Assembly (NCBI GenBank): GCA_947626425.1
Contig: CANQRX010000001.1
Coordinates: forward strand, 6,528-70,527
DNA: 64,000 nucleotides
Source of the DNA: an uncultured Bacilli bacterium
GTDB lineage: Bacteria > Bacillota_I > Bacilli_A > RF39 > UBA660
Direction: 5' to 3'
The translations under genes and the position numbers were made by a program. Below the pieces are notes generated by a model. The model saw only the letters and a list, made by a program, of their open reading frames with translations, made no database searches and was not told the origin of the DNA. This document shows positions 26,474-64,000 of this stretch, piece by piece (within the stretch, counting starts at the first letter, position 1; every line of letters begins with the position of its first letter).

Positions 26474-26654
26474 TCACTTTTTTTAATTTTCGTTCAAATT
26501 CTAAACGATCCATCATAATTTCTCGTCCACAATTACAACATTTTAACTTTATATCAACACCAATTCTGGTAATTATCCAATCATTAGTTTTACAAGCATG
26601 CATTTTTTTCATTATGACATGATTTCCTAAACTATATTTCTTCATTTGCTCCAT
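26445..26654 (-). CDS. DUF951-family small protein
   Basis: 69 aa with zinc-ribbon-like CxxC..CCNC; sits between ychF and mscS as in many Firmicutes. Confidence 0.55.
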   Translation of the reverse strand: MEQMKKYSLGNHVIMKKMHACKTNDWIITRIGVDIKLKCCNCGREIMMDRLEFERKLKKVIGDSNESKN

Positions 26655-27444
26655 AATGTACCTCTATCTGACTATAAGGAATTGATAAATTCTCTTCATC
26701 ATATGTTTTTTTAATAATTCGTAAAGCTCTTCTTTTAATATCCCATTGTTCACTTTGCTTACAATAAATTAAAATCGAATAAGTTATTGAAGAACCTTCA
26801 AAAGCATCAATTCCTAAATATTTCGTGTCTGCATAAACATTGGGAATTTTTTTAATCTGATCTAATATTTTTTTAATTACGGTTTCTACTCGTTCCACGC
26901 TTTCTTCATATCTTGTCGGAATGTCAATTTTAACACCCGCGCGTTCTTGACTTATATTTATAACTGACGTAACACTGTGGTTCGGTAAAACCATAACTTC
27001 ACCATTAAAACGACGAATTTTTGTACTTTTTAAACTTAGTTCAATAACTTCGCCCGTAAATCCGTTAATTGTAACCATATCCCCAATAACATAATAATTA
27101 TCAGTTATAATCGCTATTCCACTAATAAAATCTTGGGCTGTTTCTTGCAAAGCTAAACCTAAAAAAGCTCCAGCAATACCTAATGAAGCCACAATACTTC
27201 TTGTATCAACGCCATATAAATTCAAAATAAAAACAATCATTATCACAATGATAAAAAATTTAAAAATATTCATTACCAATTCAATAATCGTTGTTCTTTT
27301 CTTTTGTTCATAGGTATTAATTCCATGATTAAAAACTTTATCAACAAATGTTTCAGCAATTTTATAAATAATATAACCTACTACAACTACTAAAAAAGGT
27401 CCCATTACTTTTCTACTAAAAAGAAAATTCATTATTTTATCCAT
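26632..27444 (-). CDS. mscS: small-conductance mechanosensitive channel (MscS family)
   Basis: TM3 pore-helix motif IVASLGIAGAFLGLALQETAQDFISG followed by a beta domain. Confidence 0.8.
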   Translation of the reverse strand: MDKIMNFLFSRKVMGPFLVVVVGYIIYKIAETFVDKVFNHGINTYEQKKRTTIIELVMNIFKFFIIVIMIVFILNLYGVDTRSIVASLGIAGAFLGLALQETAQDFISGIAIITDNYYVIGDMVTINGFTGEVIELSLKSTKIRRFNGEVMVLPNHSVTSVINISQERAGVKIDIPTRYEESVERVETVIKKILDQIKKIPNVYADTKYLGIDAFEGSSITYSILIYCKQSEQWDIKRRALRIIKKTYDEENLSIPYSQIEVHYGANEEI

Positions 27445-28334
27445 TAAACGCCCTCAATTCTAACTCCTAGCATTTCCAAAATAGCCCCTAAATCTTCTTC
27501 TTTGGTATAAGGAATTTCAATTTTTTTATCAGTTACTTTTACTTTAACCCCTAATTTTTCTCTTAATAAACTTTCATAAATTGAATTTCTAATATTTTGA
27601 GTTTTAGTAGCTCGTTCTTGTTTTTGTCGTTTTGGCAAATTTTCTTCATTTATTAAATTTTCTAAGCCTCGGACACTCATTGATTCATTAATAATTCTTT
27701 CCGCTAATTCATTTATTTTAGCTTCATCTTTAATTTTACTTAAAGCTCTCGCATGTCCCATACTAATTTTTTTATCTAAAACATATTGTTTTGTTATTTC
27801 TGGTAAAGTTAAAAGGCCTAAAATATTTGTAACATGACTTCGACTTTTTCCAAATTTTTTTGCAAAATCTTCCTGAGTCATACTTGCATAATGAATAATA
27901 TTTTGAATAGCTGTAGCTTCTTCAATAGGATTCAAATCTTCTCTTTGGATATTTTCTAATAACGCCACTTCCATCATTTGTTGATCATTATAGTCTTTAA
28001 CAATCGCCTGAATTTCCGTTAACCCAGCTAAACGAGCAGCTTTACATCTTCTTTCACCAGCTACTAATTCATATCCTTTAATACTTTTTTTAACTAAAAC
28101 TGGTTCAATGATACCATGTTCCTTAATCGAATCTGATAATTCTCTTAATGTATCTTCATCAAATTTTTTTCGAGGTTGATACGGATTACTTCGAATCTCT
28201 TCTAATTTAATACTTTTTACTCCCAAATCACTAGATTCAGAGTGTTCTTCTTTTGTATAATTTTCAAAATTGATAACTTCGTTTGAAAACAACTGTTCTA
28301 AACCTTTTCCTAATGCTTTTCTTTTAGTCTCCAT
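27444..28334 (-). CDS. parB: chromosome partitioning protein ParB/Spo0J
   Basis: ParB box GERRCKAARLAGL and HTH; the ORF contains no parS (no CACGTG). Confidence 0.9.
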   Translation of the reverse strand: METKRKALGKGLEQLFSNEVINFENYTKEEHSESSDLGVKSIKLEEIRSNPYQPRKKFDEDTLRELSDSIKEHGIIEPVLVKKSIKGYELVAGERRCKAARLAGLTEIQAIVKDYNDQQMMEVALLENIQREDLNPIEEATAIQNIIHYASMTQEDFAKKFGKSRSHVTNILGLLTLPEITKQYVLDKKISMGHARALSKIKDEAKINELAERIINESMSVRGLENLINEENLPKRQKQERATKTQNIRNSIYESLLREKLGVKVKVTDKKIEIPYTKEEDLGAILEMLGVRIEGV

Positions 28335-29112
28335 TTCTACTAATCACTTCCTTTGCTAAATTTTCATAGGCAAGGGTTGCTCTTGAAGTAGGATCATAAT
28401 CGCTAATAGGCTTTCCATGACTAGGTGCCTCGACTAATCTTACTAATCTCGGAATGATTGTATTAAACACTTTTGATTTAAAACATTTTCTTACTTCTTC
28501 AATAATTTCTAAACCAATATTTGTTCTTCCATCTAACATTGTTAATAGAACCCCTTCTATTCTTAATTCTGTATTCATTTTATTTTGAACTAAAATTATG
28601 GAATTTAATAATTGGGCAATTCCCTCTAATGCAAAATATTCACATTGAACAGGAATAATAACTGAATTACTTGCCACCAAAGCATTCATGGTGGAAATAC
28701 CTAAACTTGGTTGACAATCTATAATAATATAATCAAACTTATCTTTTACTTCATTTAAAGCCTCTTTTAATTGTTCATTTTGTTTAAAAGAATTATCTTC
28801 AAGCATTTTTTTAACAAATTCTACATCAACCCCAGCCAAATTAATTGTCGCAGGAATTATTGACAAATTTTTAAATTTTGTTTTTATTATTGCCTGTTCG
28901 ATTGGACAAGACTTCGTTATTACATCATATATATCATGTTCAAAATCGTTGGTATTCAATCCTAACCCATTTGAAGCATTACCTTGAGGGTCTAAATCAA
29001 TAAGTAAAGTTTTTTTTCCTTCTTTTCCTAAAGCTGCTGCAAGATTAATACTTGTTGTCGTTTTTCCTACTCCACCTTTTTGATTTACTAATGAAATAAT
29101 CTTTGCCATAAT
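28324..29112 (-). CDS. parA: chromosome partitioning ATPase ParA/Soj
   Basis: Deviant Walker A MAKIISLVNQKGGVGKTT. Confidence 0.9.
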   Translation of the reverse strand: MMAKIISLVNQKGGVGKTTTSINLAAALGKEGKKTLLIDLDPQGNASNGLGLNTNDFEHDIYDVITKSCPIEQAIIKTKFKNLSIIPATINLAGVDVEFVKKMLEDNSFKQNEQLKEALNEVKDKFDYIIIDCQPSLGISTMNALVASNSVIIPVQCEYFALEGIAQLLNSIILVQNKMNTELRIEGVLLTMLDGRTNIGLEIIEEVRKCFKSKVFNTIIPRLVRLVEAPSHGKPISDYDPTSRATLAYENLAKEVISRNGD

Positions 29113-29265
29113 ACCACCTTTTAATCTCCTTAACACTAAAGACATTTTAACACGTATAATAAAATAAGTAAATTAAAGAACTTAATTTTTTTAAACACTT
29201 CCTAGCTATTCCTTGATTTAATCAACAAAAAATTTTTTATTTTTTTTCTTCAAAAAAACATTTCT

Positions 29266-41576: not shown

Positions 41577-43244
41577 CTAATCTATTATTTCTATTTTTTC
41601 TTCCGAAAATAAATCTTTTGCTATTTCTTCTAAAGCATTTTCCTCAGTCGGCTTCAACTCATTTAAGCTATCTTCATCTATTATCTCATATTTTATACCA
41701 TTTTTTAAATTTTTAATATATTCTTCCTTCATTTCATTCCAATCTTTCTCAGATACTGCAATTAACTTTATATTTTCACCTAAAATATTCGCCAAAGATT
41801 TTTCAATTTCTAAAATTTTTCGATTAATTAATAAAACCGTACTTTCTAAACTAACTGCCATAACCACAATTTCTGGGCTAGCTAATACAATTTTGGCATC
41901 TATTAATAAAGATTTTATTTCAGGTTTAATATCACTTGTCGCAAATTCTTGAAACTTATTTTGAAAATAAGTTAAATACTTTTTATGTGCATTGACAAAA
42001 CAGTTATTTATTCTAACCATTTTTAATTCATTTAAATACTCAATCATTTCTTCTTCATAATCATTACTAAAAGTTTCGGCTGTCGTTGTTTGAATATCAC
42101 TATTTTTTATTTCATTTCCAAAGTTTTGTTCTAAAATAACTTGGCTTTCTTTATTTTTTGATTCCCCATTTATCTCGTTTTTAGGCATCCTTTCTTGATT
42201 TTTTAATTCATCTTTATTTATATATTTTAACAAAATTAACTGAATTAAAACAAAAGGACTTATATAGACATTAACTTTGTTTAAACAATCATTTAAATCA
42301 AAAATTAAATTTTTTATTTGTTCATAACTTAATTTTTGCGAATAAGGATCATTCTTAATTTTAATCGCTTTTTGAACTAATTGAGCTATTAATTTTTTTA
42401 CAAACACTTTATAATCAGTTGCATTATTTTCTAATTCTTTAATAGCTTCAACTATAGCCATCGCATCATTATTTTCCAATGCTTCGACCATTTTATTGAT
42501 AAATACAGATGAGATAGAACCATAATTAACTAAAATTTTATCCAAAGTTATTTCTGTGCCATCACTAGAAAGCTGATCTATTAAAGATAATGCATCCCGT
42601 AAACCACCTTCAGCTAAATAACTTACCTCACTTAAAGCTTCATCTGTAATTTTAATTCCTTCATTTTGACAAACAAAAGCTAGTCTATTTTTAATATCTT
42701 CTAAAGCGATTTTTTTAAAATTAAACCTTTGACACCGAGATAAAATTGTTATAGGAACACTTTCTACATTCGTCGTAGCCATAATAAAAATTGCATGTGC
42801 TGGAGGTTCCTCCAATGTTAATAACAACGCATTAAAAGCATTTTGAGTCATCATGTGGACTTCATCAATAATGTAAATTTTGTAACGGCCTTCCGAAGGA
42901 GCAATTTTAACATTATTTATCAACTCTCTAATATCATCAACACCATTATTTGAGGCTGCATCAATTTCAATAATATCCGCACTTGAGTTAAAATTTAAAC
43001 AACTATTACACTTTCCACATGCTTCACCATTTACTAAATTTTCACAGTTGATAGTCTTAGCAAAAATCTTAGCTGTACTAGTTTTCCCAGTTCCCCGAGG
43101 TCCCGTAAATAAATAAGCATGAGAAATTTTATCATTCATAATAGCATTTTTTAACATTTTTACAGTATAATCTTGCCCAACAACATTAGAAAAATCACTG
43201 GGACGATATTTTCTATACAAAACTTTATAATCCATATAATTCAA
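41577..43244 (-). CDS. dnaX: DNA polymerase III subunit gamma/tau
   Basis: GPRGTGKTSTAKIFAK Walker A, zinc module CGKCNSC and SRC sensor motif. Confidence 0.9.
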   Translation of the reverse strand: MNYMDYKVLYRKYRPSDFSNVVGQDYTVKMLKNAIMNDKISHAYLFTGPRGTGKTSTAKIFAKTINCENLVNGEACGKCNSCLNFNSSADIIEIDAASNNGVDDIRELINNVKIAPSEGRYKIYIIDEVHMMTQNAFNALLLTLEEPPAHAIFIMATTNVESVPITILSRCQRFNFKKIALEDIKNRLAFVCQNEGIKITDEALSEVSYLAEGGLRDALSLIDQLSSDGTEITLDKILVNYGSISSVFINKMVEALENNDAMAIVEAIKELENNATDYKVFVKKLIAQLVQKAIKIKNDPYSQKLSYEQIKNLIFDLNDCLNKVNVYISPFVLIQLILLKYINKDELKNQERMPKNEINGESKNKESQVILEQNFGNEIKNSDIQTTTAETFSNDYEEEMIEYLNELKMVRINNCFVNAHKKYLTYFQNKFQEFATSDIKPEIKSLLIDAKIVLASPEIVVMAVSLESTVLLINRKILEIEKSLANILGENIKLIAVSEKDWNEMKEEYIKNLKNGIKYEIIDEDSLNELKPTEENALEEIAKDLFSEEKIEIID

Positions 43245-43308: not shown

Positions 43309-43740
43309 CTATTTTCTTTTATCCTTAAAAAAATCTTTCAATATATTATTATACATTAGTTCGTATTCTTTGTCAATAGCATCTGAATGCATACATATGT
43401 TCGTTTTATTATATTCCTTCTTATAAGTCAATTTATCTAGCAAATAGTATACCTTGGAAATCCTTGACTGCTTTATAACTTCTAGACACATACTGCACGG
43501 CTTTAACGTAACATATAAAGTACAATCAGCTAAATTCCACCGTCCCAAAGCACGGGAAGCTTCAGCTATCGTATTTATCTCAGCATGCCCTAGTATTGAC
43601 TTATCCCTTTCTCTAGTATTGCAACCACTAGAAATTATCTTTCCGTCTCGTATTAATACGGCTCCAATCGGAACATCATCAGTTAATAACGATGCCTTTG
43701 CCTTTTCTATACAAGCATCCCATATTTCTATCTCATTCAT
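43309..43740 (-). CDS. tadA: tRNA-specific adenosine deaminase
   Basis: HAE...PCSMC zinc-binding CDA motif; start set at MNEIEIWD (the ORF track's N-terminal extension overlaps ffs). Confidence 0.85.
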   Translation of the reverse strand: MNEIEIWDACIEKAKASLLTDDVPIGAVLIRDGKIISSGCNTRERDKSILGHAEINTIAEASRALGRWNLADCTLYVTLKPCSMCLEVIKQSRISKVYYLLDKLTYKKEYNKTNICMHSDAIDKEYELMYNNILKDFFKDKRK

Positions 43741-43763
43741 TTTCCTCACTCCATTACATAAAA

Positions 43764-43838
43764 AAAGTGCACACAAACAGAGGCTGACGTGGCTGCTATC
43801 TTCCGATCCTGACCAGATTACAGTATATTTGTTGCACA
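43764..43838 (-). ncRNA. ffs: small (4.5S-type) SRP RNA
   Basis: Minus strand GUGCAACAAAUAUACUGUAAUCUGGUCAGGAUCGGAAGAUAGCAGCCACGUCAGCCUCUGUUUGUGUGCAC. GGUCAGGAUCGGAAGAUAGCAGCC matches SRP domain IV (E. coli CAGGUCAGGUCCGGAAGGAAGCAGCC); the terminal stem GUGCAACAAA/UUUGUGUGCAC is followed by a U-run. Confidence 0.7.
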
Positions 43839-43843
43839 AATAA

Positions 43844-43872: not shown

Positions 43873-43893
43873 TAACATTAAATATATCACAAA

Positions 43894-43909
43894 TGTTCCA
43901 CGTGGAACA
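43894..43909. promoter_or_regulatory. parS: parS site 1 TGTTCCACGTGGAACA (perfect palindrome, 16/16 to TGTTNCACGTGNAACA)
   Basis: Seen in sequence. Confidence 0.8.
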
Positions 43910-44010
43910 TCAATTTTTTTAATCGCTTACCATTTTACTTTCGTAATTTAATAAAATATTTTTTAAATTTTGCTTTATTATTTATCAATAAATTTTATGT
44001 TATTAACATA

Positions 44011-44026
44011 TGTTTCACGTGAAACA
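44011..44026. promoter_or_regulatory. parS: parS site 2 TGTTTCACGTGAAACA (canonical, perfect)
   Basis: Seen in sequence. Confidence 0.85.
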
Positions 44027-44162
44027 TAGATTAACTTTTATTTTTTAAAATTTTTATTTATTAACTTCTACTTTAAATGTTATATAACAATTTTATATTT
44101 ACTCTATTGGATTTTAATTTATTTACATAATTCTCTGATAAGTTATCAATTACATTTCAAAT

Positions 44163-44178
44163 TGTTTCACGTGGAACT
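44163..44178. promoter_or_regulatory. parS: parS-like site 3 TGTTTCACGTGGAACT (1 mismatch)
   Basis: Seen in sequence. Confidence 0.6.
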
Positions 44179-44410
44179 TTTTTTAAATTATCAACAACAT
44201 AAATATATAAAAATATACACAATTGATCAGATTATTTCTGAATCAACTACCTTATCATATCTTATTTTTAAACCTTTATATTTTGAATTAACTTGCATTA
44301 CTATTCATATTTAAAAATTTTTCATTGCAAAATTATTAATCACTAATTATTTTTGTTACACTGTTATCTTTTTATAATTATTTGATAAATTATTGCATTA
44401 AAATTCCCAA

Positions 44411-44426
44411 CGTTTCACGTGAAACA
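44411..44426. promoter_or_regulatory. parS: parS-like site 4 CGTTTCACGTGAAACA (1 mismatch)
   Basis: Seen in sequence. Confidence 0.6.
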
Positions 44427-44554
44427 TTGTTTTGTTTATAATAAAAAATTGTAACTTAATTTAAAACTATTTTTTAGTTAACTTCATTTTTTTATAATAC
44501 ATTTTTACTATCAATTATTAAAATTTCACAAACTTACTTTCAACTGTTCTTTAA

Positions 44555-44570
44555 TGTTCCACGTGGAACA
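44555..44570. promoter_or_regulatory. parS: parS site 5 TGTTCCACGTGGAACA (perfect)
   Basis: Seen in sequence. Confidence 0.8.
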
Positions 44571-44672
44571 TCAATTTTTTTAATCATTTACTATTTTACT
44601 TTCGTAATTTATAATAAGATATTTTTTAATTTTTGCTTTGTATATATCAATTAGTTTTTTGTTATTAACATA

Positions 44673-44688
44673 TGTTTCACGTGAAACA
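44673..44688. promoter_or_regulatory. parS: parS site 6 TGTTTCACGTGAAACA (perfect)
   Basis: Seen in sequence. Confidence 0.85.
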
Positions 44689-44837
44689 TAAACTTAACTT
44701 TTATTTTTTTAATTGTTAATTTTTAATTTATTTTCATCAATTTTTTGTGATTTTGAAAAAATTAAATTAGTTAAGATAATAAAATAATTTTGAAAATTGT
44801 TTAATATTTATTTTCATCTAAATTTTGAGCAAACTTT

Positions 44838-44950
44838 TGGAAATAGGCAATGGTATGATAGGCTTAGATTTGCCAGTTGGCTTAAATGCTAACTGGCTCA
44901 AGCCATTAAATTCATACTATTGGGTTCCTGTTTCCAAAAGGAAATTAAAA
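44838..44950. ncRNA. candidate structured small RNA / foreign GC-rich segment inside the insertion in repeat unit 2 (strand unknown)
   Basis: Locally GC-rich. Perfect 10-bp stem (one G-U) GCCAGTTGGC-TTAAAT-GCTAACTGGC (44872-44897), flanked by AATGG/CCATT and GGCTTAG/CTCAAGCC pairings. A second hairpin TTTCC-AAAA-GGAAA (44931-44944) lies before an A/T-rich tail. Confidence 0.25.
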
Positions 44951-45181
44951 TTTAGTGAAAATAATCTTTAAATATTAGTTATTATAATTTTTAAATATTT
45001 TGTTTTTAAGTTTTTTTTAGACTAATTTATTTTTTAAATCGTTGGTTATAATATCATTAAAATTAACATTTAATTTTTAATTATTAACTTTCTACTTTAA
45101 ATATATAACAATTTTATATTTACTCTATTGGATTTTAATTTATTTACATAATTCTTAGATAAGTTTAATTACATTTCAAAT

Positions 45182-45197
45182 TGTTTCACGTGGAACT
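45182..45197. promoter_or_regulatory. parS: parS-like site 7 TGTTTCACGTGGAACT (1 mismatch)
   Basis: Seen in sequence. Confidence 0.6.
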
Positions 45198-45420
45198 TTT
45201 TAAATTATTAACATAAATCTATAAAAAAACTAATCAGATTTATATATATTTGCTGAATCCACTATCTTTTCATATTATTTTTAAACCTTATATTTTGAAT
45301 TAACTTGCATTACTATTCATTTAAAGTTTTTTTATTGCAAAATACTTTATTATTTTTTTTTAAACACATTATAATTTTAATGGTTGAAATTCATAATTAA
45401 AATATACTAAAATCTCCCAA

Positions 45421-45436
45421 CGTTTCACATGAAACA
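45421..45436. promoter_or_regulatory. degenerate parS-like site 8 CGTTTCACATGAAACA (2 mismatches, central CACGTG lost)
   Basis: Seen in sequence. Confidence 0.35.
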
Positions 45437-45563
45437 TCGTTTTGGTTATAATAAAAGTATATATAATTATAATTTAAAACTACTTCTTTAGTTTATTCAT
45501 TTATTTTTATCTATATTTTTATATCATCTATTCTTTAAAAATTTTCTTTCAACTATTCTTCAA

Positions 45564-45579
45564 TGTTCCACGTGGAACA
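45564..45579. promoter_or_regulatory. parS: parS site 9 TGTTCCACGTGGAACA (perfect)
   Basis: Seen in sequence. Confidence 0.8.
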
Positions 45580-45680
45580 TCAATTTTTTTTAATCGCTTA
45601 CCATTTTACTTTCGTAATTTAACAAAATATTTTCTAAATTTTGCTTTATATTTATCAATAAATTTTATGTTATTAACATA

Positions 45681-45696
45681 TGTTTCACGTGAAACA
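45681..45696. promoter_or_regulatory. parS: parS site 10 TGTTTCACGTGAAACA (perfect)
   Basis: Seen in sequence. Confidence 0.85.
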
Positions 45697-45826
45697 TAGA
45701 TTAACTTTTATTTTTTAAATTTTAATTATTAACGCTTTAGATGCTATATAACTATCTTATAATTACTTTATTGGATCCTAATATGTTTTATAATTTCTTT
45801 AATAAGTTATCAATTACATTTTAGAT

Positions 45827-45842
45827 TGTTTTACGTGGAACT
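45827..45842. promoter_or_regulatory. degenerate parS-like site 11 TGTTTTACGTGGAACT (2 mismatches)
   Basis: Seen in sequence. Confidence 0.35.
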
Positions 45843-46074
45843 TTTTTTAAATTATCAATAACATAAATATATAAAAATATACACAATTGATCAGATTATT
45901 TCTGAATCAACTACCTTATCATATCTTATTTTTAAACCTTTATATTTTGAATTAACTTGCATTACTATTCATATTTAAAAATTTTTCATTGCAAAATTAT
46001 TAATCACTAATTATTTTTGTTACACTGTTATCTTTTTATAATTATTTGATAAATTATTGCATTAAAATTCCCAA

Positions 46075-46090
46075 CGTTTCACGTGAAACA
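46075..46090. promoter_or_regulatory. parS: parS-like site 12 CGTTTCACGTGAAACA (1 mismatch)
   Basis: Seen in sequence. Confidence 0.6.
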
Positions 46091-46218
46091 TTGTTTTGTT
46101 TATAATAAAAAATTGTAACTTAATTTAAAACTATTTTTTAGTTAACTTCATTTTTTTATAATACATTTTTACTATCAATTATTAAAATTTCACAAACTTA
46201 CTTTCAACTGTTCTTTAA

Positions 46219-46234
46219 TGTTCCACGTGGAACA
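46219..46234. promoter_or_regulatory. parS: parS site 13 TGTTCCACGTGGAACA (perfect)
   Basis: Seen in sequence. Confidence 0.8.
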
Positions 46235-46336
46235 TCAATTTTTTTAATCATTTACTATTTTACTTTCGTAATTTATAATAAGATATTTTTTAATTTTTGC
46301 TTTGTATATATCAATTAGTTTTTTGTTATTAACATA

Positions 46337-46352
46337 TGTTTCACGTGAAACA
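46337..46352. promoter_or_regulatory. parS: parS site 14 TGTTTCACGTGAAACA (perfect)
   Basis: Seen in sequence. Confidence 0.85.
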
Positions 46353-46488
46353 TAAACTTAACTTTTATTTTTTTAATATTTAATTATTAACTTTCTACTT
46401 TAAATATATAACAATTTTATATTTACTCTATTGGATCTTTTAATTTATTTACATAATTCTTTGATAAGTTATCAATTACATTTTAAAT

Positions 46489-46504
46489 TGTTTCACGTGG
46501 AACT
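46489..46504. promoter_or_regulatory. parS: parS-like site 15 TGTTTCACGTGGAACT (1 mismatch)
   Basis: Seen in sequence. Confidence 0.6.
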
Positions 46505-46731
46505 TTCTTAAATATCAACTAAATCTATAAAAAAAAACTAACCCGATATATTTGCTGAATCCCAACTACCTCCTCTTATCTTATTTTTAAACCTTTATAT
46601 TTTGAATCAACTTGCATTACTATCCATTTAAAAGTTTTTCATTGCAAAATATTTTATTGTTTACTTTTTTAAAGCACAATATAATTTTAATGTTTAAAAT
46701 TCATAATTAAATTTATACTAAAATCTCCCAA

Positions 46732-46747
46732 CGTTTCACGTGAAACA
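46732..46747. promoter_or_regulatory. parS: parS-like site 16 CGTTTCACGTGAAACA (1 mismatch)
   Basis: Seen in sequence. Confidence 0.6.
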
Positions 46748-46875
46748 TCGTTTTGGTTATAATAAAAAATTTGTAAATATTAATTTAAAAACCATTTTAC
46801 TTCATTTCTTTATAATATTTTTTATACCATCAATTTCATTAAAAACTTTATAAACCACTTCTAATTATTATTCAA

Positions 46876-46891
46876 TGTTCCACGTGGAACA
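46876..46891. promoter_or_regulatory. parS: parS site 17 TGTTCCACGTGGAACA (perfect)
   Basis: Seen in sequence. Confidence 0.8.
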
Positions 46892-46992
46892 TCAATTTTT
46901 TTATCACTTACTATTTTGCTTTCGTAATTTAATAAAATACTTTTTAAATTTTGCTTTATATATATCAATTAGTTTTTTGTTATTAACTTTTA

Positions 46993-47008
46993 TGTTTCAC
47001 GTGAAACA
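46993..47008. promoter_or_regulatory. parS: parS site 18 TGTTTCACGTGAAACA (perfect), 19 bp from the gyrA stop
   Basis: Seen in sequence. Confidence 0.85.
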
Positions 47009-47026: not shown

Positions 47027-49489
47027 CTATTCCTCTTCATTATCATTTGTTTCTTCTTCAGTATTTTTTTCAATATGTTCAACTATACTTATAGTCGATA
47101 CTGATTGATTTTCCTTTAAATTAATTAATCGAACCCCTTGAGTTACTCTACCCAACGTTGATACTTGATTTAAAGGTAACCTAATAGTCATACCAGTATT
47201 TGTAATAACCACTACATCGGCATTATCTTCTACTAATTTAAACGATGCTATTGACCCATTTTTCTCTGTAATATTCAATGCTTTAACGCCCTTACTGCCT
47301 CGACTTGTTACTCGATAGTCACGAACATTTGTTTGCTTACCGTAACCCTTCTCAGTGACTATTAAAATCTTAGCATCATCATTTGCAATCTCAGCACCAA
47401 TACAATCATTACCATCTAAATTAATTCCTCGAACACCACTAGCCGTACGTCCCATTACTCGGATTTCGGTTTCTTTAAATTTAACCATTCGACCCGAACT
47501 TGAACCCAATAACACCATATCATCGCCTGTGGTTTTCCGAACACCAATTAACTCATCATTTTCTCTTAAAGTAATACAAACCTTACCATTAGTTCTAATT
47601 GAATCAAATTCGCTTATAGAAGTTTTCTTAACAATACCTTTCTTCGTTGCAAACAACAAATACTTACTGCTTTCTTCACGACTAATTTTAACTAAAGAAT
47701 TAATCGACTCATCCTTCTCAATCTGCAATAAATTAATAACAGGTAACCCTTTAGATTGACGACTAAATTCCGGAATTTCATAGCCTTTTAAACGATAAAC
47801 CTTACCTTTATTCGTAAAGAATAAAATATAATCATGCGTTGATAAATTAAGCAAATGACTAACAAAATCCTCTTCATTAGTATTCATACCCTTAACACCA
47901 ACACCACCACGATTTTGCGATTTAAAGGCATCAACACTCATCCGTTTAATATAACCCTTGCTAGTCAAAGCAATCATAATATTTTCCTCTGGTATCAAAG
48001 ATTCATCTTCAATATACTCAATAGCCGTCATATCAATATCAGTTCTACGTTCATCAGCATATTTTCTCTTAATCTCCAACAACTCTTCTCGAATAATGGC
48101 TAATACAAGCTCATCACTAGCTAAAATCGCTTTTAAGCGGTCAATTTCCTTCAACAAGTCATTTAATTCATTTTCAATCTTTTCTCGCTCTAAACCTGTT
48201 AAACGACGTAATCTCATCTCCAAAATAGCTTCCGCTTGAATTTCATCTAATCCAAAACGTTCCATCAACGTATTCTTAGCAATTACATCCGTTTCACTAC
48301 TACGAATTATGTTAATAACTTCATCAATATGATCTAAAGCTATTTTAAAACCTTCCAAAATATGAACACGATCTTGAGCTTTCTTCAAATCAAATCTTGT
48401 TCGCCTAATAATAATTTCCTTTTGATAATCAATATATTTAGAAATAATACTTTTTAAAGGTAAAATTACTGGTTGTTTATTATCCAACATTAAGAAATTT
48501 ATCCCATAAGAAACTTGTAATTGAGTATGCTTATATAAATTATTTAAAACAACATTAGCATTGGCCTCTTTTTTCAAATAAATAACTACCCGAACAGGAT
48601 GCTCTAAATTCGACTCTTCATGTAAATCAGCTATACCATCAATAATTTTATCTCGAACTAATTGCCCTATTCTCGTTTGAAATTCCGCCTTATTTACTTG
48701 ATAAGGAAGCTCTGTAACGATTATCCGTGAACGACCATTACTAGTTTCCTCAATCTCTACTTTACCACGGATTGTAATTGTTCCTTTGCCGGTATCATAG
48801 GCTTTTCTAATCCCACTGTTACCTAAAATTGAAGCTCCAGTTGGAAAATCAGGACCTTTTATATACTGCATTAACCCATCCGTATCAATATCCGGATTAT
48901 CAATATAAGCAACACATCCATCTATAACCTCACCCAAATTATGAGGTGGAATATTCGTAGCCATTCCAACAGCAATCCCCATTGTTCCATTAACTAAAAT
49001 ATTAGGGAACCTACTTGGTAAAATAATCGGTTCTTTTTCCGTTTCATCAAAATTATCTCGAAAATCAATAGTATCTTTATTAATATCTCGAACCATTTCT
49101 AAGGCTAGTTTTGATAAACGAGCCTCCGTATAACGCATGGCAGCTGCCCCATCACCATCTAAATTACCAAAGTTTCCATGACCATCGACTAACATATGTC
49201 GAAAGCTAAAAGGCTGAGCCATTCGCACCATAGCATCATAAATCGAACTATCACCGTGTGGATGATATTTACCCATGACATCCCCGACAATTCTCGCACT
49301 TTTCCGATGAGGTTTATCAGGTGTATAACCAGATTCATACATTGAATACAAAATCCGACGATGAACAGGCTTTAAACCATCTCGTAAATCAGGTAAAGCT
49401 CTTGCGACTATAACACTCATTGAATAATTAGTAAAACTATCTTTAACTTCTTTAACAATATTATTCTCTATAATCTTATCCATAAACAA
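47027..49489 (-). CDS. gyrA: DNA gyrase subunit A
   Basis: 820 aa; active-site region ...[11 protein letters not shown]..., GyrA-box beta-pinwheel CTD and acidic tail. Confidence 0.95.
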
Positions 49490-52595: not shown

Positions 52596-53063
52596 CTAGT
52601 TTTCATTAAAAGCCTTTTTACTCTTTTTTCGACTTCTTAGAGCACTTTCTAATCGCGCCGAACGTAACACTTGATTATCCAAAGAACCATATGATAAATC
52701 TAAAGATAACTTCGTACCATTTTTAAATTGAATTTCAATACTATTATCTTTTTTAACGTATTTATCAATATGTCCTAAACAAATCCAGCTATTTTCTTTA
52801 TTTCGAAGCGATGACGTAGGAAAAAAAATAATTTCGCGGGATTCTTCAACAATAATTGGTGCTTTATAACAAACCCCTATCATTGATTCTGTACCTTTTA
52901 AACGACCTTCTAAACTACTTCCAAAATACTCACAGCTTTCTTCTAAAATTTTATTAGCATTTTGTTCAATATAAAAACTTTGATCTTCTTCATAAACTTT
53001 AGATAACTTATCACTACAAGCCACAACAGCCAAAGTAGATTCGTTAATTTCATAACTTTTCAT
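52596..53063 (-). CDS. comK: ComK-family competence transcription factor homolog
   Basis: Aligns block-by-block with B. subtilis ComK: SYEINESTLAV / SYEVNGATIAV; SCEYFGSSLEGRLKGT / SCRFFGSSYAGRKAGT; FFPTSSLRNKENSWICLGHI / LFPTLSSTRPQCGWISHVHV; FKNGTKLSLDLSYGSLDNQVLRSARL / FSNGKTMELPISYNSFENQVYRTAWL. Confidence 0.7.
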   Translation of the reverse strand: MKSYEINESTLAVVACSDKLSKVYEEDQSFYIEQNANKILEESCEYFGSSLEGRLKGTESMIGVCYKAPIIVEESREIIFFPTSSLRNKENSWICLGHIDKYVKKDNSIEIQFKNGTKLSLDLSYGSLDNQVLRSARLESALRSRKKSKKAFNEN

Positions 53064-54277: not shown

Positions 54278-54334
54278 TTCTTTTTTATTTATTATATATA
54301 TTAATAATAATAACAATGTTGATAATGTGGATAA
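54278..54334. promoter_or_regulatory. oriC: oriC unwinding module: AT-rich DUE (54278-54300) - (TAA)4 DnaA-trio-like repeat (54302-54313) - tandem DnaA boxes TGTTGATAA (54317-54325) and TGTGGATAA (54326-54334)
   Basis: Arrangement mirrors the Bacillus basal unwinding system (box6-box7, trinucleotide repeats, AT-rich 27-mer) in the dnaA-dnaN spacer. Confidence 0.6.
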
Positions 54335-54375
54335 CTTTTAACTTTCCTTTATTTATGGGCTTTAACAGGCCAAAG

Positions 54376-54415
54376 TTATCCACAAAGTTATCCACTTTTT
54401 ATAAAGTTATCCACA
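54376..54415. promoter_or_regulatory. oriC: DnaA-box cluster downstream of dnaA (incC-like)
   Basis: TTATCCACA at 54376-54384 and 54407-54415; TTATCCACT at 54388-54396; all in the same orientation with ~11-20 bp spacing. Confidence 0.8.
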
Positions 54416-55906: not shown

Positions 55907-56202
55907 TTATCCACATCTAAAAAAAGGTATCCCCAAATTATCCACCGAGTTATGCACATTTTTACCAAAGTTATCAACACTACATTTGCCTTAAATAAAG
56001 GGAAAAACCTAGTTATCCACATTATCAACATTGGCTTAATCAACAATTTATCAACATGTGAATAACTTTATCCACCTTAATGTGGATATGTTGATAACTT
56101 TTAAACATTGCCCTATTTAAGGGACTTCATAACCAAAATAAATGTGGATAAAATGTGAATAAGATTGTGGATTAGCTTTTTCATACTCAAAAGTTATCCA
56201 CA
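55907..56202. promoter_or_regulatory. oriC: DnaA-box cluster upstream of dnaA (incA/B-like), at least 15 boxes in both orientations
   Basis: Perfect TTATCCACA/TGTGGATAA at 55907-15, 56013-21, 56143-51 and 56194-202. One-mismatch boxes at 55938-46, 55950-58, 55971-79, 56022-30, 56048-56, 56057-65, 56068-76, 56081-89, 56090-98, 56155-63 and 56166-74. Confidence 0.8.
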
Positions 56203-60556: not shown

Positions 60557-62422
60557 ATGGACTTTGAAATAATAGTAGTAGGAGCTGGTCATGCTGGCAT
60601 CGAAGCTAGCCATATTTCAGCTTTTAAAAACCATAAAACACTTTTAATAACTAGTAACGAAAAAAACATAGCCGATATGCCATGTAATCCATCTATTGGC
60701 GGTTCGGCCAAAGGAATTATTGTTCGTGAAATAGATGCCTTAGGCGGATTAATGGGAAAAATTGCTGATAAATCTCATTTTCAAATTAAAATGCTAAATA
60801 ATTCTAAAGGACCTGCTGTTCGTGCTTTGCGAGCTCAAGCGGATAAAGTAACATACCGTCAAAATATGCTTAAAGCCTTAAAGGATACCAAAAATCTTAC
60901 CATTAAAGAAGGCATGGTCGAAGATTTAATTATTGAAAATAACCAAGTAAAAGGCGTAATTTTAGCCAATGGGGAAAAAATTACGAGCCAAATTGTTATT
61001 TTAACAACCGGAACTTATCTGAAAGCTAATATTTTAATAGGCTCATCATCAACCCCAAGTGGACCTCATGGGGAACAAAGAAGTAATAGGCTAAGCGACA
61101 ATCTAAAAAAATACGGTCATCAAATTCAACGCTTAAAAACGGGAACCCCTCAAAGAATCAAAGCCTCTTCAATCGATTTTAACCAAATGCAAGAAGAAAA
61201 GGGTGATTCCCAATATTGGACGTTTTCTTGCGACGATGAACCATCTTACGATATTAACAATCAACAAAAATGCTATTTAATTTATACCAATGCTCAAACT
61301 CATCAAATTGTCCTAAACAATCTTGACAAATCTGCTATGTATGGGGGCTATGTTACAGGCGTCGGTCCAAGATATTGTCCAAGTATTGAAGATAAGCTAG
61401 TGAGATTTAAAGACAAAGAACGGCACCAACTTTTTTTAGAACCAGAAAGTTTAGCCTATGATGAATGGTATCTCCAAGGATTTTCTACATCGATGCCTAA
61501 AGATATTCAAGAACAAATGGTTCACAGTTTAAAAGGCTTGGAAAATGCCATAATTACTAAATATGCTTATGCAATTGAATACGATGCGATAGATCCTCTC
61601 GAAATAAACCCCTCATTAGAATCAAAAATAATTAATAATCTTTTTACAGCTGGGCAAATAAATGGCACCAGTGGCTATGAAGAAGCCGCAGCTCAAGGCC
61701 TAATGGCTGGCATAAATGCTAGTTTAAAATTAGAAAACAAGGAGCCTTTAATTTTAAAAAGAAACGATGCTTACATAGGAGTTTTAATTGATGATTTAGT
61801 AACCAAAGGCACCAAAGAACCCTATCGAATGTTAACATCCCGAGCCGAATATCGTTTAATTCTTCGTCATGATAATGCTGATCTTCGTCTAAGAAAATAT
61901 GCTCATGAAATTGGAAGCATTACTGAAACTCAATATCAAAATTACCAAAATAAATTAAAATTACTAACAGATTGTGAAAATTTCTTAAAACAAACAACTT
62001 TAAAAATGACCGAAGAAAATAAAAAATACTTTGTTGACCAAAATTATGCAGTTCCCACGACGAGCTTAACATTTTATGAACTTTTAAAACGCCCAGAAAT
62101 AACTTTAGCATTTTTAAACAACTTTCAAACTATTCCTTTTCCTAAAGAGATAACTGATGAAATGGAAATAACAATCAAATACGAAGGATACATTGCCAAA
62201 ATGAACAAAGAAATTTCTAAAATGGAAAAATTAGAAAGCAAACAAATTCCGAAAGATATTGATTATCAAAAAATTAAAAATTTAGCTTCGGAAGCCCGCC
62301 AAAAATTAGAAAAAATAAGACCCATTTCTATAGGTCAAGCCTCCCGTATAAGTGGGGTAAATCCCAGCGACATTACAATTTTAAGCATTTATTTAAAGAA
62401 AGAATATGGTAAAAATGACTGA
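60557..62422 (+). CDS. mnmG: tRNA uridine 5-carboxymethylaminomethyl modification enzyme MnmG
   Basis: FAD site MDFEIIVVGAGHAGIEAS; SD AAGGAA at 60545-60550. Confidence 0.95.
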   Translation: MDFEIIVVGAGHAGIEASHISAFKNHKTLLITSNEKNIADMPCNPSIGGSAKGIIVREIDALGGLMGKIADKSHFQIKMLNNSKGPAVRALRAQADKVTYRQNMLKALKDTKNLTIKEGMVEDLIIENNQVKGVILANGEKITSQIVILTTGTYLKANILIGSSSTPSGPHGEQRSNRLSDNLKKYGHQIQRLKTGTPQRIKASSIDFNQMQEEKGDSQYWTFSCDDEPSYDINNQQKCYLIYTNAQTHQIVLNNLDKSAMYGGYVTGVGPRYCPSIEDKLVRFKDKERHQLFLEPESLAYDEWYLQGFSTSMPKDIQEQMVHSLKGLENAIITKYAYAIEYDAIDPLEINPSLESKIINNLFTAGQINGTSGYEEAAAQGLMAGINASLKLENKEPLILKRNDAYIGVLIDDLVTKGTKEPYRMLTSRAEYRLILRHDNADLRLRKYAHEIGSITETQYQNYQNKLKLLTDCENFLKQTTLKMTEENKKYFVDQNYAVPTTSLTFYELLKRPEITLAFLNNFQTIPFPKEITDEMEITIKYEGYIAKMNKEISKMEKLESKQIPKDIDYQKIKNLASEARQKLEKIRPISIGQASRISGVNPSDITILSIYLKKEYGKND

Positions 62423-63113
62423 ACAAGAATTTATAGAAGAATTACAAAAACTTAATATCACTTTAACGCAAACTCAAATAAACCAATTTCATATCTATGC
62501 TGATTTTTTGCAAAAATATAATGAACACACGAACCTAACAGCCATTAAAACCCTCGAAGATATTTATCTAAAACATTTTTATGACAGCTTAACTCTGACT
62601 AAAATAATTAATTTAGACCAAGGCAAATTACTAGATATTGGAACTGGGGCCGGATTTCCTGGTTTAGTTTTAGCAATAACTTATCCCAAATTACAAGTAA
62701 CATTGGTAGACTCAAATAATAAAAAAATAACCTTTTTAAAAGAATGCTTGAAATTATTAAAAATCGCCAATGTAAATATTATCTCTGATCGGGCAGAAAA
62801 CTATACAAGGACCCATCGCGAAGAATATGATTACGTAACTTCAAGAGCTGTAGCTCAACTTCGAATTTTAATTGAACTTGGAATTCCGTCTTTAAAAATA
62901 AATCAATATTTAATTGCCATGAAAAGCCATTCCGAAGATGAAGTAGCCGATTCCCAAATTGCTTTACAAAAATTAAATTGCCAAATTGTTGACCAAATAA
63001 ACTTCGATTTACCAAATAATGCTGGTTATCGAACTTTAATAAAAATAATTAAAAATCAAGAAACGCCAAGCATTTACCCTCGAACTTATGATAAAATTAA
63101 GAAAAAAATTTAA
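62406..63113 (+). CDS. rsmG: 16S rRNA (guanine527-N7)-methyltransferase RsmG
   Basis: SAM motif DIGTGAGFPGLVLA. Confidence 0.9.
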   Translation: MVKMTEQEFIEELQKLNITLTQTQINQFHIYADFLQKYNEHTNLTAIKTLEDIYLKHFYDSLTLTKIINLDQGKLLDIGTGAGFPGLVLAITYPKLQVTLVDSNNKKITFLKECLKLLKIANVNIISDRAENYTRTHREEYDYVTSRAVAQLRILIELGIPSLKINQYLIAMKSHSEDEVADSQIALQKLNCQIVDQINFDLPNNAGYRTLIKIIKNQETPSIYPRTYDKIKKKI

Positions 63114-63211
63114 TATTCTAATTTATTTTAAAGTCTTATAATAATTTCGAGCATATAATAAAAATGACTTTTACTAACTTTTGAGTTATAATATCGAAAA
63201 AGGTGGAGAAA

Positions 63212-64000
63212 ATGAATATCTTAAAAAAGAATTTAATTATAATAAAAAATCTTAAAGACCAAAAACATATTATGACACATTTAAAATATACAAATGAAAA
63301 ATTATTTATTGATGGACTGGAAATTGACTTGAATAAAATAGACCTTGCCCAAATATTTAACAATAAAATTATTGAACATATCGAAAAAATAACAATCACC
63401 GATATTAAAAAATTAGCTTTAATTGCCTTAGAAAAAGAACGGATGCAAGAAGAAAAATTAGCTAACGAAACCCCTGAGAATTTTCGAATTATGAATTTTC
63501 AAATTTTAAATAAGGTTAGAGAAGATGGAACATATCTTGAATATCCGTACTATGTCGATGAAAATAACCGAATTTATGTTCTTTTTAACTATGCTAAAAC
63601 TGATATTATTAATGAATATCAAAAACTATTTTTAGAATCACAAGGCCAATTAACCGGCCGCGATTTATATGAACACTTTGCCAGAAAAATGCCCAAAATC
63701 GAATTAACTCCTGATTATAAAAATCCTCATATGTCCGAAGAAAATAAGTTTGAAAGCGAATTAATCAATAAACAAAATAAATCCCAACGCGTATATCTAA
63801 ATCAAGAACATGATCTTTATTCACTTGGGACAACGCTTTATGTTCATAACTTTCAAAATGGTAATCTCAATCAAAATATTTACAACCATGAATCACCTTC
63901 GGAAAAATCTTCATACTATGACCAGTTTACTTCAACTAGAATTACCATGGCCCCAGCAAATCACCAAATGGGGCACATCATTACGATTCAAAAATATTTA
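63212..64000 (+). CDS. hypothetical protein, 3'-partial (runs off right edge)
   Basis: Open frame of 263 codons with no stop from the ATG at 63212 (SD AGGTGGAG at 63201-63208) to the window end; not in the ORF track because it is unterminated; no motif recognised. Confidence 0.5.
   Translation, partial: MNILKKNLIIIKNLKDQKHIMTHLKYTNEKLFIDGLEIDLNKIDLAQIFNNKIIEHIEKITITDIKKLALIALEKERMQEEKLANETPENFRIMNFQILNKVREDGTYLEYPYYVDENNRIYVLFNYAKTDIINEYQKLFLESQGQLTGRDLYEHFARKMPKIELTPDYKNPHMSEENKFESELINKQNKSQRVYLNQEHDLYSLGTTLYVHNFQNGNLNQNIYNHESPSEKSSYYDQFTSTRITMAPANHQMGHIITIQKYL

Follow-up and report, generated by a model that had tools for sequence, protein, structure and literature searches.

A tandem array of 18 parS sites downstream of gyrA in an uncultured Bacilli bacterium, and its counterparts in related genomes

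Locus and repeat structure of the array

The DNA considered here is a stretch of 64,000 nucleotides (hereafter, the window) from the genome assembly of an uncultured Bacilli bacterium (GTDB lineage RF39; UBA660; assembly GCA_947626425.1, contig CANQRX010000001.1, positions 6,528 to 70,527 of the forward strand). Leftward from 55.8 kb, the window carries dnaA, dnaN, comK, recF, gyrB, and gyrA. From 18 bp beyond the gyrA stop codon, a noncoding tract follows that is filled with copies of parS, the 16-bp palindromic site of ParB-type partition proteins, and on the far side of it lie ffs, which encodes the small signal recognition particle (SRP) RNA, tadA, and then dnaX. The tract is very probably a chromosomal centromere, i.e., a cluster of parS sites that would load the ParB encoded in the same window, a CTPase clamp of the Spo0J type. 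In the following, we describe the array, its counterparts in relatives, and the explanations that compete with this one.

A scan of the window with TGTTNCACGTGNAACA, allowing up to two mismatches, returned 18 matches, all of them within the tract (Table 1) and none elsewhere. Of these, ten are free of mismatches, six contain one, and two contain two. Dinucleotide shuffles of the window gave a mean of 0.14 matches and a maximum of 2, and allowing a third mismatch adds only two unrelated matches near 32 kb, which is the level expected by chance. The tract has a G+C content of 18.7%, compared to 27.9% for the window, and its only open reading frames (ORFs) of at least 50 amino acids (aa) are a 50-aa ORF with a TTG start and a 77-aa ORF antisense to the end of gyrA.

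Four classes of site can be told apart, namely, A (TGTTCCACGTGGAACA), B (TGTTTCACGTGAAACA), C (TGTTTCACGTGGAACT), and D (CGTTTCACGTGAAACA), which recur in the order A-B-C-D with start-to-start spacings of 117, 152, 248, and 144 bp. Together they make up 4.2 tandem units of ∼657 bp with four sites each. Unit lengths are 655 to 661 bp, except for unit 2, which has 1009 bp. Full units are 86 to 97% identical to one another, and the flanks of the four sites within a unit are mutually unrelated. Tandem Repeats Finder missed the array because its maximum period of 500 is below the unit length, and the repeats were therefore defined by a repeat search and our own alignments. In classes C and D, every copy carries the one-mismatch state, which is thus an inherited feature of the unit rather than independent decay; only two site substitutions (at 45421 and 45827) postdate the duplications. 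A previous reading of this DNA from its letters alone (the sequence-only reading) had counted 18 copies with the same split into mismatch classes, and our rescan reproduced both the counts and the coordinates exactly. It had also placed the array beside gyrA, where it indeed lies between gyrA and ffs/tadA, and had called the tract ORF free, which is effectively so. The higher-order repeat that it described, with four sites per ∼657-bp unit and ∼4.2 units, is correct, and we add the insertion in unit 2 as a correction.

Table 1. Coordinates of the parS array, its repeat units, and related features in the window
Feature	Coordinates	Strand	Remarks
Whole parS array	43894..47008		18 sites in 3115 bp; 18.7% G+C; without credible ORF
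Unit 1 (661 bp)	43894..44554	+	A 43894 perfect; B 44011 perfect; C 44163 one mismatch; D 44411 one mismatch
Unit 2 (1009 bp, with insertion)	44555..45563	+	A 44555 perfect; B 44673 perfect; C 45182 one mismatch; D 45421 two mismatches (CACATG)
Insertion unique to unit 2	44707..45073		∼350-365 bp, seen as an alignment gap; outside the repeating unit
Unit 3 (655 bp)	45564..46218	+	A 45564 perfect; B 45681 perfect; C 45827 two mismatches (TTTTAC); D 46075 one mismatch
Unit 4 (657 bp)	46219..46875	+	A 46219 perfect; B 46337 perfect; C 46489 one mismatch; D 46732 one mismatch
Partial unit 5	46876..47008	+	A 46876 perfect; B 46993 perfect; 18 bp remain to the gyrA stop codon
A-site terminator-like positions	43893-43920, 44554-44581, 45563-45590, 46218-46245, 46875-46902	+ only	Hairpin and T-run
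gyrA	47027..49489	-	3' end adjoins the array; flanks the parS cluster on the left in all relatives (conserved anchor)
ffs (small SRP RNA)	43761..43841	-	Rfam, 54 bits
tadA (tRNA adenosine deaminase)	43309..43740	-	143 aa from ATG; flanks the cluster on the right in relatives (conserved anchor)
parB (296 aa)	27444..28334	-	N-terminal LGKGL; GERR and ENIQRED boxes; helix-turn-helix with specificity residues R-I-T-G
parA (273 aa)	28324..29145	-	Overlaps the parB start; deviant Walker A KGGVGKT; Pfam AAA_31, E=7e-67
DnaA-box cluster 1 (7 boxes)	55907..56202		Upstream of dnaA; gene orientation and GC skew switch here
DnaA-box cluster 2 (3 boxes)	54326..54415		Between dnaA and dnaN

The sites have changed far less than the DNA between them. 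In a MAFFT alignment of units 1 to 4, 2 of 64 parS columns are variable, as against 154 of the 554 spacer columns without gaps (Fisher test, p=1.2e-6). When the spacer columns are limited to those with G or C as the majority base, 37 of 83 vary, again compared to the 2 of 64 in parS (p=3e-9). This argues that individual parS copies were maintained while the spacers drifted. The units also record how the array grew. Units 1 and 3 are 96.8% identical, units 2 and 4 agree at 100% in their A segments, and the other pairs are at 86 to 91%; this pairing implies that a two-unit block of 1664 bp was itself duplicated. An ancestral four-site cluster of ∼0.65 kb was thus copied in tandem to form the two-unit block, and duplication of that block then gave the present 4.2 units. 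By unequal recombination between units, the size of the array may rise or fall.

The insertion in unit 2 is of a different nature. As a whole, it folds into one long imperfect hairpin, or foldback, with a minimum free energy (MFE) of -106.5 kcal/mol (z=-10.0), and its G+C-richer core of 105 nt (44834-44940) folds with an MFE of -54.9 kcal/mol (z=-9.1). Its termini form a 32-nt imperfect inverted repeat that is 75% complementary. No homolog was found in the window, in the 222 loci that we fetched, or in IMG/VR, and searches of Rfam with the insertion and of Pfam with its small ORFs gave no match. Judging by these features, the insertion looks like a miniature inverted-repeat transposable element (MITE) or foldback element, or possibly a structured RNA.

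How well is the array supported by other assemblies? Three short-read assemblies in ENA contain contigs of the same species, recognized by its GyrB and TadA; the source samples belong to a study that includes ERZ27249329, ERZ27249337, and ERZ27249603. In one of the assemblies (ERZ27249337), contig L002 enters the array from gyrA and stops after 1378 bp, which are 100% identical to units 3 to 5. Contig L085 of this sample reaches 293 bp beyond tadA on its upstream side, where it is 100% identical to the end of unit 1 and only 97% identical to unit 3. Two contigs from another sample (L003 and L086) likewise break at the array. In the remaining sample, contig L001, at 3.4-fold coverage, bridges gyrA to tadA with ten sites in 2.2 units. 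Its sequence is of the unit-1 type through site B and ∼28 further bases, and of the unit-3 type from there to the end, i.e., units 1 and 3 are joined across a shared identical stretch of ∼65 bp, and one 1664-bp block is lost. A real unequal crossover and the collapse of a de Bruijn graph would give the same contig; copy-number variation within the species is suggested. The short bridge in L001 and the lack of independent contigs over unit 2 and its insertion could be taken to mean that the multi-unit array arose in assembly, by spurious tandem duplication or mis-joined reads. We consider this highly improbable, given that the units differ at many positions and by insertions and deletions, unlike the artefacts made by duplicated reads, and that L002 and L085 are 100% identical to the window, the latter including bases specific to unit 1. 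A genuine long repeat should interrupt short-read contigs, and these two, as well as L003 and L086, indeed stop within the array. Since both ends of the array are reproduced at 100% identity in short-read contigs, it is not an artefact of one assembly.

parS clusters in related genomes

To place the array in context, we compared it with relatives found by a GyrA search, keeping one genome per species. This gave 80 loci (GyrA 69 to 88% identical; ±10 kb around gyrA; 1.45 Mb in total) from metagenome-assembled genomes (MAGs) of uncultured gut Bacilli of rabbit, mouse, human, and ruminant. Their records are labelled Bacilli, Tenericutes, or Candidatus Coprovivens, and we suspect that they belong to the RF39 lineage. 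These loci contain 264 parS sites, 223 of them perfect and 41 with one mismatch, and all of them fall within the range from -50 to +2500 bp relative to the gyrA stop codon. Most sites are in the gyrA-tadA intergenic region, a few are inside tadA or dnaX, and there are none elsewhere in the 1.45 Mb. Two or more sites are present at 66 of the 67 loci that have at least 2.5 kb downstream of gyrA (median, 3; maximum, 11), and a cluster typically consists of 2 to 6 sites in less than 1 kb. The gap between gyrA and tadA is 80 to 1314 bp in the relatives versus 3287 bp here. The gene order around the cluster, dnaA-dnaN-recF-gyrB-gyrA / tadA-dnaX, is conserved synteny, and comparison of the relatives' loci found no conservation of spacer DNA between species. 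The occurrence of the cluster directly after gyrA across the clade shows it to be an ancestral feature that has been conserved in the whole group, of which the array in the window is the largest known version.

Eight contigs from MAGs of this clade end 2 to 700 bp past the gyrA stop codon, in or at the parS cluster. This suggests that parS arrays systematically break short-read assemblies. Because contigs end at the arrays, the site counts in relatives are lower bounds. Small clusters are not merely artefacts, though, since a relative represented by a long-read contig of 1.19 Mb (L039; DAJPHG010000001.1) has only three to four sites. Six contigs with the Bacilli-type gyrA-parS-tadA locus, including two of the amplified arrays described below (L058 and L082), come from MAGs labelled Methanobacteriaceae archaeon or Muribaculaceae; these contigs are probably mis-binned or mislabelled.

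Tandem amplification of parS, recognized by flanks that are at least 75% identical (random 50-mers of the same regions average 34%), is seen in 5 of 73 relatives. In L058, eleven perfect sites stand in repeats of 53 to 55 bp, and in L074 at least seven sites stand in repeats of 37 to 39 bp that run into the end of the contig. The repeat period is 56 bp in L082 and ∼235 bp in L009 and L060. These periods are unrelated to the 657-bp unit, which indicates several independent amplifications.

Why, then, should one genome have 18 sites? It is possible, although we lean against it, that the sites are real parS and that their expansion from ∼4 to 18 was a neutral by-product of unequal recombination or slippage in AT-rich intergenic DNA, with copies that are redundant and a number that drifts. 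The relatives' median of three sites fits such a history, as do the 18 of 67 loci with only one or two, and a single parS is often sufficient according to a review (PMC7333895). Amplified arrays are also sporadic, with unrelated periods in 5 of 73 relatives, as stochastic events would give, and L001 may show the loss of a two-unit block without obvious cost. The sequence of the array weighs against neutrality. The units have diverged by 3 to 14%, yet 16 of 18 sites keep no more than one mismatch, and parS columns vary ∼9-fold less than spacers, which suggests purifying selection on individual copies. In addition, G/C-rich motifs should decay fastest in a tract of 19% G+C, but they do not. Neutral expansion is the main rival on the question of site number, weakened by the contrast between sites and spacers.

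A selective counterpart can also be put forward, which we regard as doubtful: the gyrA-tadA locus could be a tunable centromere, where the number of parS sites has been amplified repeatedly by selection (periods of 39, 54, 56, ∼235, and 657 bp) and is polymorphic within species via unequal crossover at parS. L001, as an exact recombinant of units 1 and 3 without one 1664-bp block, fits this idea. If true, centromere "strength" would be a variable, selected trait, in parallel to the dynamics of satellite repeats at eukaryotic centromeres.

Partition proteins, origin context, and the case for a centromere

The window also encodes the proteins expected to act on such sites (Table 1). Pfam recognizes ParB_N and HTH_ParB domains in the ParB, both with E=1e-34, and its best solved relative is Bacillus subtilis Spo0J (6SDK, E=2e-60), ahead of Noc (7NFU, 1e-42). 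It passes the NCBIfam model parB_part with 187.7 bits (cut-off, 58) and fails the Noc model with 225 bits (cut-off, 315). Among its motifs, LGKGL is the N-terminal contact to ParA, and GERR and ENIQRED are the CTP-binding boxes. The recognition-helix region reads GKSRSHVTN...MGHAR. Jalal et al. placed the specificity positions at 173, 179, 184, and 201, anchored by G170-K171-S172, N178, and R204, and found that the "RXXG" class is parS specific, whereas Noc proteins read Q, K, K, and R (PMC7383237). Anchored on GKSR...N and GHAR, the ParB described here reads R, I, T, and G at the four positions and falls in the "RXXG" class. By the motifs, domains, and specificity residues of ParA and ParB, the cognate machinery is canonical.

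The parA-parB pair lies 14.7 to 16.5 kb from the near edge of the array. The sequence-only reading had put this distance at 16 to 19 kb, which is slightly off; it had also reported an operon without internal parS, and we likewise found none inside parB at up to three mismatches. The pair does not adjoin rsmG, unlike in many Firmicutes: it is ∼27 kb from oriC, on the arm opposite rsmG and farther out than the array on that arm, and is followed by an MscS-type channel gene (26632-29145 region). No Noc gene follows rsmG within the window (62406-64000), where the next ORF is not ParB/Noc-like. A reading of the array as Noc-binding sites (a ATTTCCCGGGAAAT-type palindrome, bound by a Noc with QKKR residues) was rejected, as the sites have a CACGTG core with TGTT arms, and the only ParB-family protein in the window scores below the Noc cut-off and has the R..G residues.

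The array is close to the origin of replication. The two DnaA-box clusters likely form a bipartite oriC; the GC skew changes at ∼56 kb, and the genes rightward from 56.4 kb are rnpA, yidC, jag, mnmE, mnmG, and rsmG. Distances from the array to these clusters are 7.3 kb and 8.9 kb, and the array is on the left replichore. A DnaA-box or oriC function for the array itself was rejected, as it contains no DnaA boxes. Two neighbors deserve mention in their own right. A comK-family gene (52596-53063, minus strand; Pfam E=4e-41) lies between dnaN and recF, an unusual location for a competence regulator, and it is also present in the ENA contigs of the same species. The dnaX gene (41577-43244) is one ORF of 555 aa in the window and was called as two genes in same-species short-read contigs (L001, 16481-18138; L085, 799-2446; 396+156 aa and 198+358 aa), which could be due to low-coverage sequencing errors or to a frameshift site.

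Altogether, the match to the 16-bp consensus, the proximity to oriC, the nearby ParA and ParB, the conservation of the sites, and the clusters in 80 relatives make a well-supported case, built on sequence, protein, and comparative evidence, for a parS centromere array. These same lines of evidence bear out the identification as a chromosomal parS centromere array that the sequence-only reading had offered. The array appears to be the chromosomal centromere of the clade, enlarged here by tandem duplication.

From established ParABS biology, we can sketch how such an array would work. CTP-bound ParB dimers would close at each of the ∼16 to 18 sites and slide onto the flanks, covering gyrA and gyrB on one side and ffs, tadA, and dnaX on the other, and they may extend to oriC, 7 to 9 kb away. 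One large partition complex would form and would be segregated by ParA-ATP, with probable loading of SMC. More loading sites would mean a higher rate of ParB loading and a higher local density, and thus more robust nucleation. The sequence-only reading had predicted, in a similar vein, that the ParB/SMC domain would be unusually large, that it would cover ffs/tadA and the gyrA 3' end, and that partition strength could vary. On the ffs side, the promoter-like sequence that best suits ffs (TTGATT-17-TATAAT preceded by TG, minus strand, 43872-43844) is 21 bp from the first A site, so ParB loading would occur at the SRP RNA promoter.

Several points temper this picture. The binding of ParB to the array, and its function there, are inferred. 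The confinement of the sites holds within the 64-kb window, and further parS may exist elsewhere in the chromosome. As many as 8 of the 18 sites are off consensus: those of classes C and D are altered at the outermost base, and two have an extra change in the core. The units share one small tree, which means that the conservation test compares classes of columns rather than independent lineages. Independent contigs support both ends of the array, not its middle (unit 2 and the insertion). Finally, relatives get by on two to three sites, and the extra copies may add nothing.

Could the palindromes instead serve transcription, with the A sites as terminators and the D sites as promoter or operator of short repeated units, or be recognized by another regulator of CACGTG? 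There are signals of this kind. All five A sites are followed by CAATTTTTTT and score as terminator-like hairpins on the plus strand (5, compared to 0.1 expected), and all four D sites overlap a plus-strand promoter-like TTCACG-17-TATAAT that matches at 10 to 11 of 12 positions. Against shuffles, though, promoter-like matches show no enrichment (46 versus 36.6 ± 6.7), and the hairpin at the A sites is the parS palindrome itself. The segment from D to A is conserved no better than other spacers and is not kept in relatives, Rfam at E≤1 finds nothing in the array region except ffs, and it is the full 16-bp parS, not only CACGTG, that is conserved in relatives amid varied flanks. A transcriptional role is thus very unlikely. 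No plus-strand gene or conserved transcript was found ahead of the A sites by ORF analysis, Rfam, or comparison of the relatives' loci. A repeated small-RNA unit running from the D promoter-like to the A terminator-like signal was considered and rejected, as we saw neither enrichment of promoter-like matches nor conservation of the segment. The signals at the A and D sites are possibly incidental, and they could matter for antisense transcription into gyrA.

Comparison with known systems

The array in the window has a close described counterpart in Myxococcus xanthus, where 22 parS form a chromosomal cluster of ∼3 kb located ∼4 kb from parA, and where ParB bound a 3.12-kb fragment in vitro (Iniesta 2014, PMC3899335). 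The two are similar in number and density (22 in ∼3 kb versus 18 in 3.1 kb), and both are chromosomal, origin proximal, and several kilobases from parAB. The hosts differ, as M. xanthus is a GC-rich deltaproteobacterium with a 9.1-Mb genome and the host here belongs to an AT-rich gut lineage of Bacilli, and the array is farther from parAB (14.7 kb, compared to 4 kb from parA). The array described here is built of 4.2 higher-order units of ∼657 bp with four sites each, in noncoding DNA.

The components are those of the B. subtilis Spo0J/parS system, with the same 16-bp consensus, a Soj-type ParA, origin-proximal sites, and Spo0J as the closest solved homolog of the ParB. The arrangement is not. 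In B. subtilis, ∼10 parS are dispersed over hundreds of kilobases, one of them inside spo0J, whereas all sites detected here are in one 3.1-kb intergenic tract and none are in parB. Also unlike in B. subtilis, parAB is not beside rsmG, and rsmG is not followed by a Noc gene. High site numbers by themselves are known: according to a review by Jalal and Le, site numbers run from one parS up to 20 to 23 (Streptomyces coelicolor, Listeria innocua) (PMC7333895). The array is comparable to these two in the number of sites near oriC. Their sites are spread over tens to hundreds of kilobases, largely within genes, and are not known to form a compact tandem repeat.

Metagenomes contain further examples. 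At least 120 loci on metagenome contigs from soil, marine, and gut samples have three perfect parS 20 to 50 bp apart, and six of the 136 metagenome and viral loci that we analyzed have at least ten parS within 3.2 kb. One of these, L110 (1044-2027), has 15 perfect parS in 1 kb of ORF-free DNA that lies 1 kb upstream of dnaA-dnaN. Another, L214 (2508-3963), has 17 perfect parS in 1.5 kb, inside a 649-aa ORF that has no Pfam match and is perhaps spurious. Compared to the array in the window, these two are even denser; they come from unrelated organisms (35% and 46% G+C) and from other loci, and their spacings are shorter and irregular (34 to 340 bp). To our knowledge, neither array has been described in a publication. 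A species-specific pattern of three parS sites from the window had no match in metagenome contigs. On sixteen contigs from IMG/VR, three perfect parS of the chromosomal type stand within ∼100 to 140 bp; these may be phage-plasmids that use this type of centromere, or chromosomal fragments misclassified as viral.

Iterated centromeres are also known from plasmids. In sopC of the F plasmid, there are 12 direct repeats of 43 bp, each with a 16-bp inverted repeat (PMC3177203). Both sopC and the array have a head-to-tail order of units that carry a palindromic ParB-family site in noncoding DNA, and the form is very similar in the relatives L058 (54 bp × 11) and L074 (39 bp × at least 7), with their short, one-site direct repeats. 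The array differs from sopC in being chromosomal, in having the chromosomal type of parS and ParB, in not adjoining the par operon, and in a unit that is 15 times longer and has four sites. Tandem iteration of this kind is typical of plasmids, sopC of F being an example (PMC3177203), and tight triplets of canonical parS occur on the sixteen IMG/VR contigs, so could the array be the centromere of an integrated plasmid or phage-plasmid? This is exceedingly improbable. A BLAST search of a unit against plasmid and phage records gave no match, the vicinity contains no mobile-element genes, the array is flanked by core genes whose synteny is conserved, and a parS cluster occupies the same locus in every relative. 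An origin of the array from a mobile element was rejected on the lack of plasmid or phage similarity and the conserved core synteny. The earlier suggestion that the array is plasmid-like rather than typical of a chromosome was overstated, considering the 22 parS in 3 kb of M. xanthus (PMC3899335), the reviewed chromosomes with 20 to 23 sites (PMC7333895), and L110.

What can be learned from a chromosomal centromere of this form? The array reveals no new mechanism, and our literature searches on the clade and parS found no description of this clade's centromere. The variation in number and the clustering of parS are listed as open questions in the review (PMC7333895). The clade offers a natural series at one orthologous locus, from 2 to 18 sites, with several independent tandem amplifications, and this series could frame comparative and synthetic tests of how ParB loading, recruitment of SMC, and the fidelity of segregation depend on site number. 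A practical consequence exists as well: immediately past gyrA, short-read assemblies break or collapse at the arrays, and the origin regions of such MAGs are systematically fragmented. In all, the M. xanthus cluster and the metagenome and viral arrays show that dense arrays of chromosomal parS are a recurring and partly documented phenomenon. Specific to the array described here are its ∼657-bp, four-site unit, the fixed position after gyrA across the clade, and the independent amplifications at that position.

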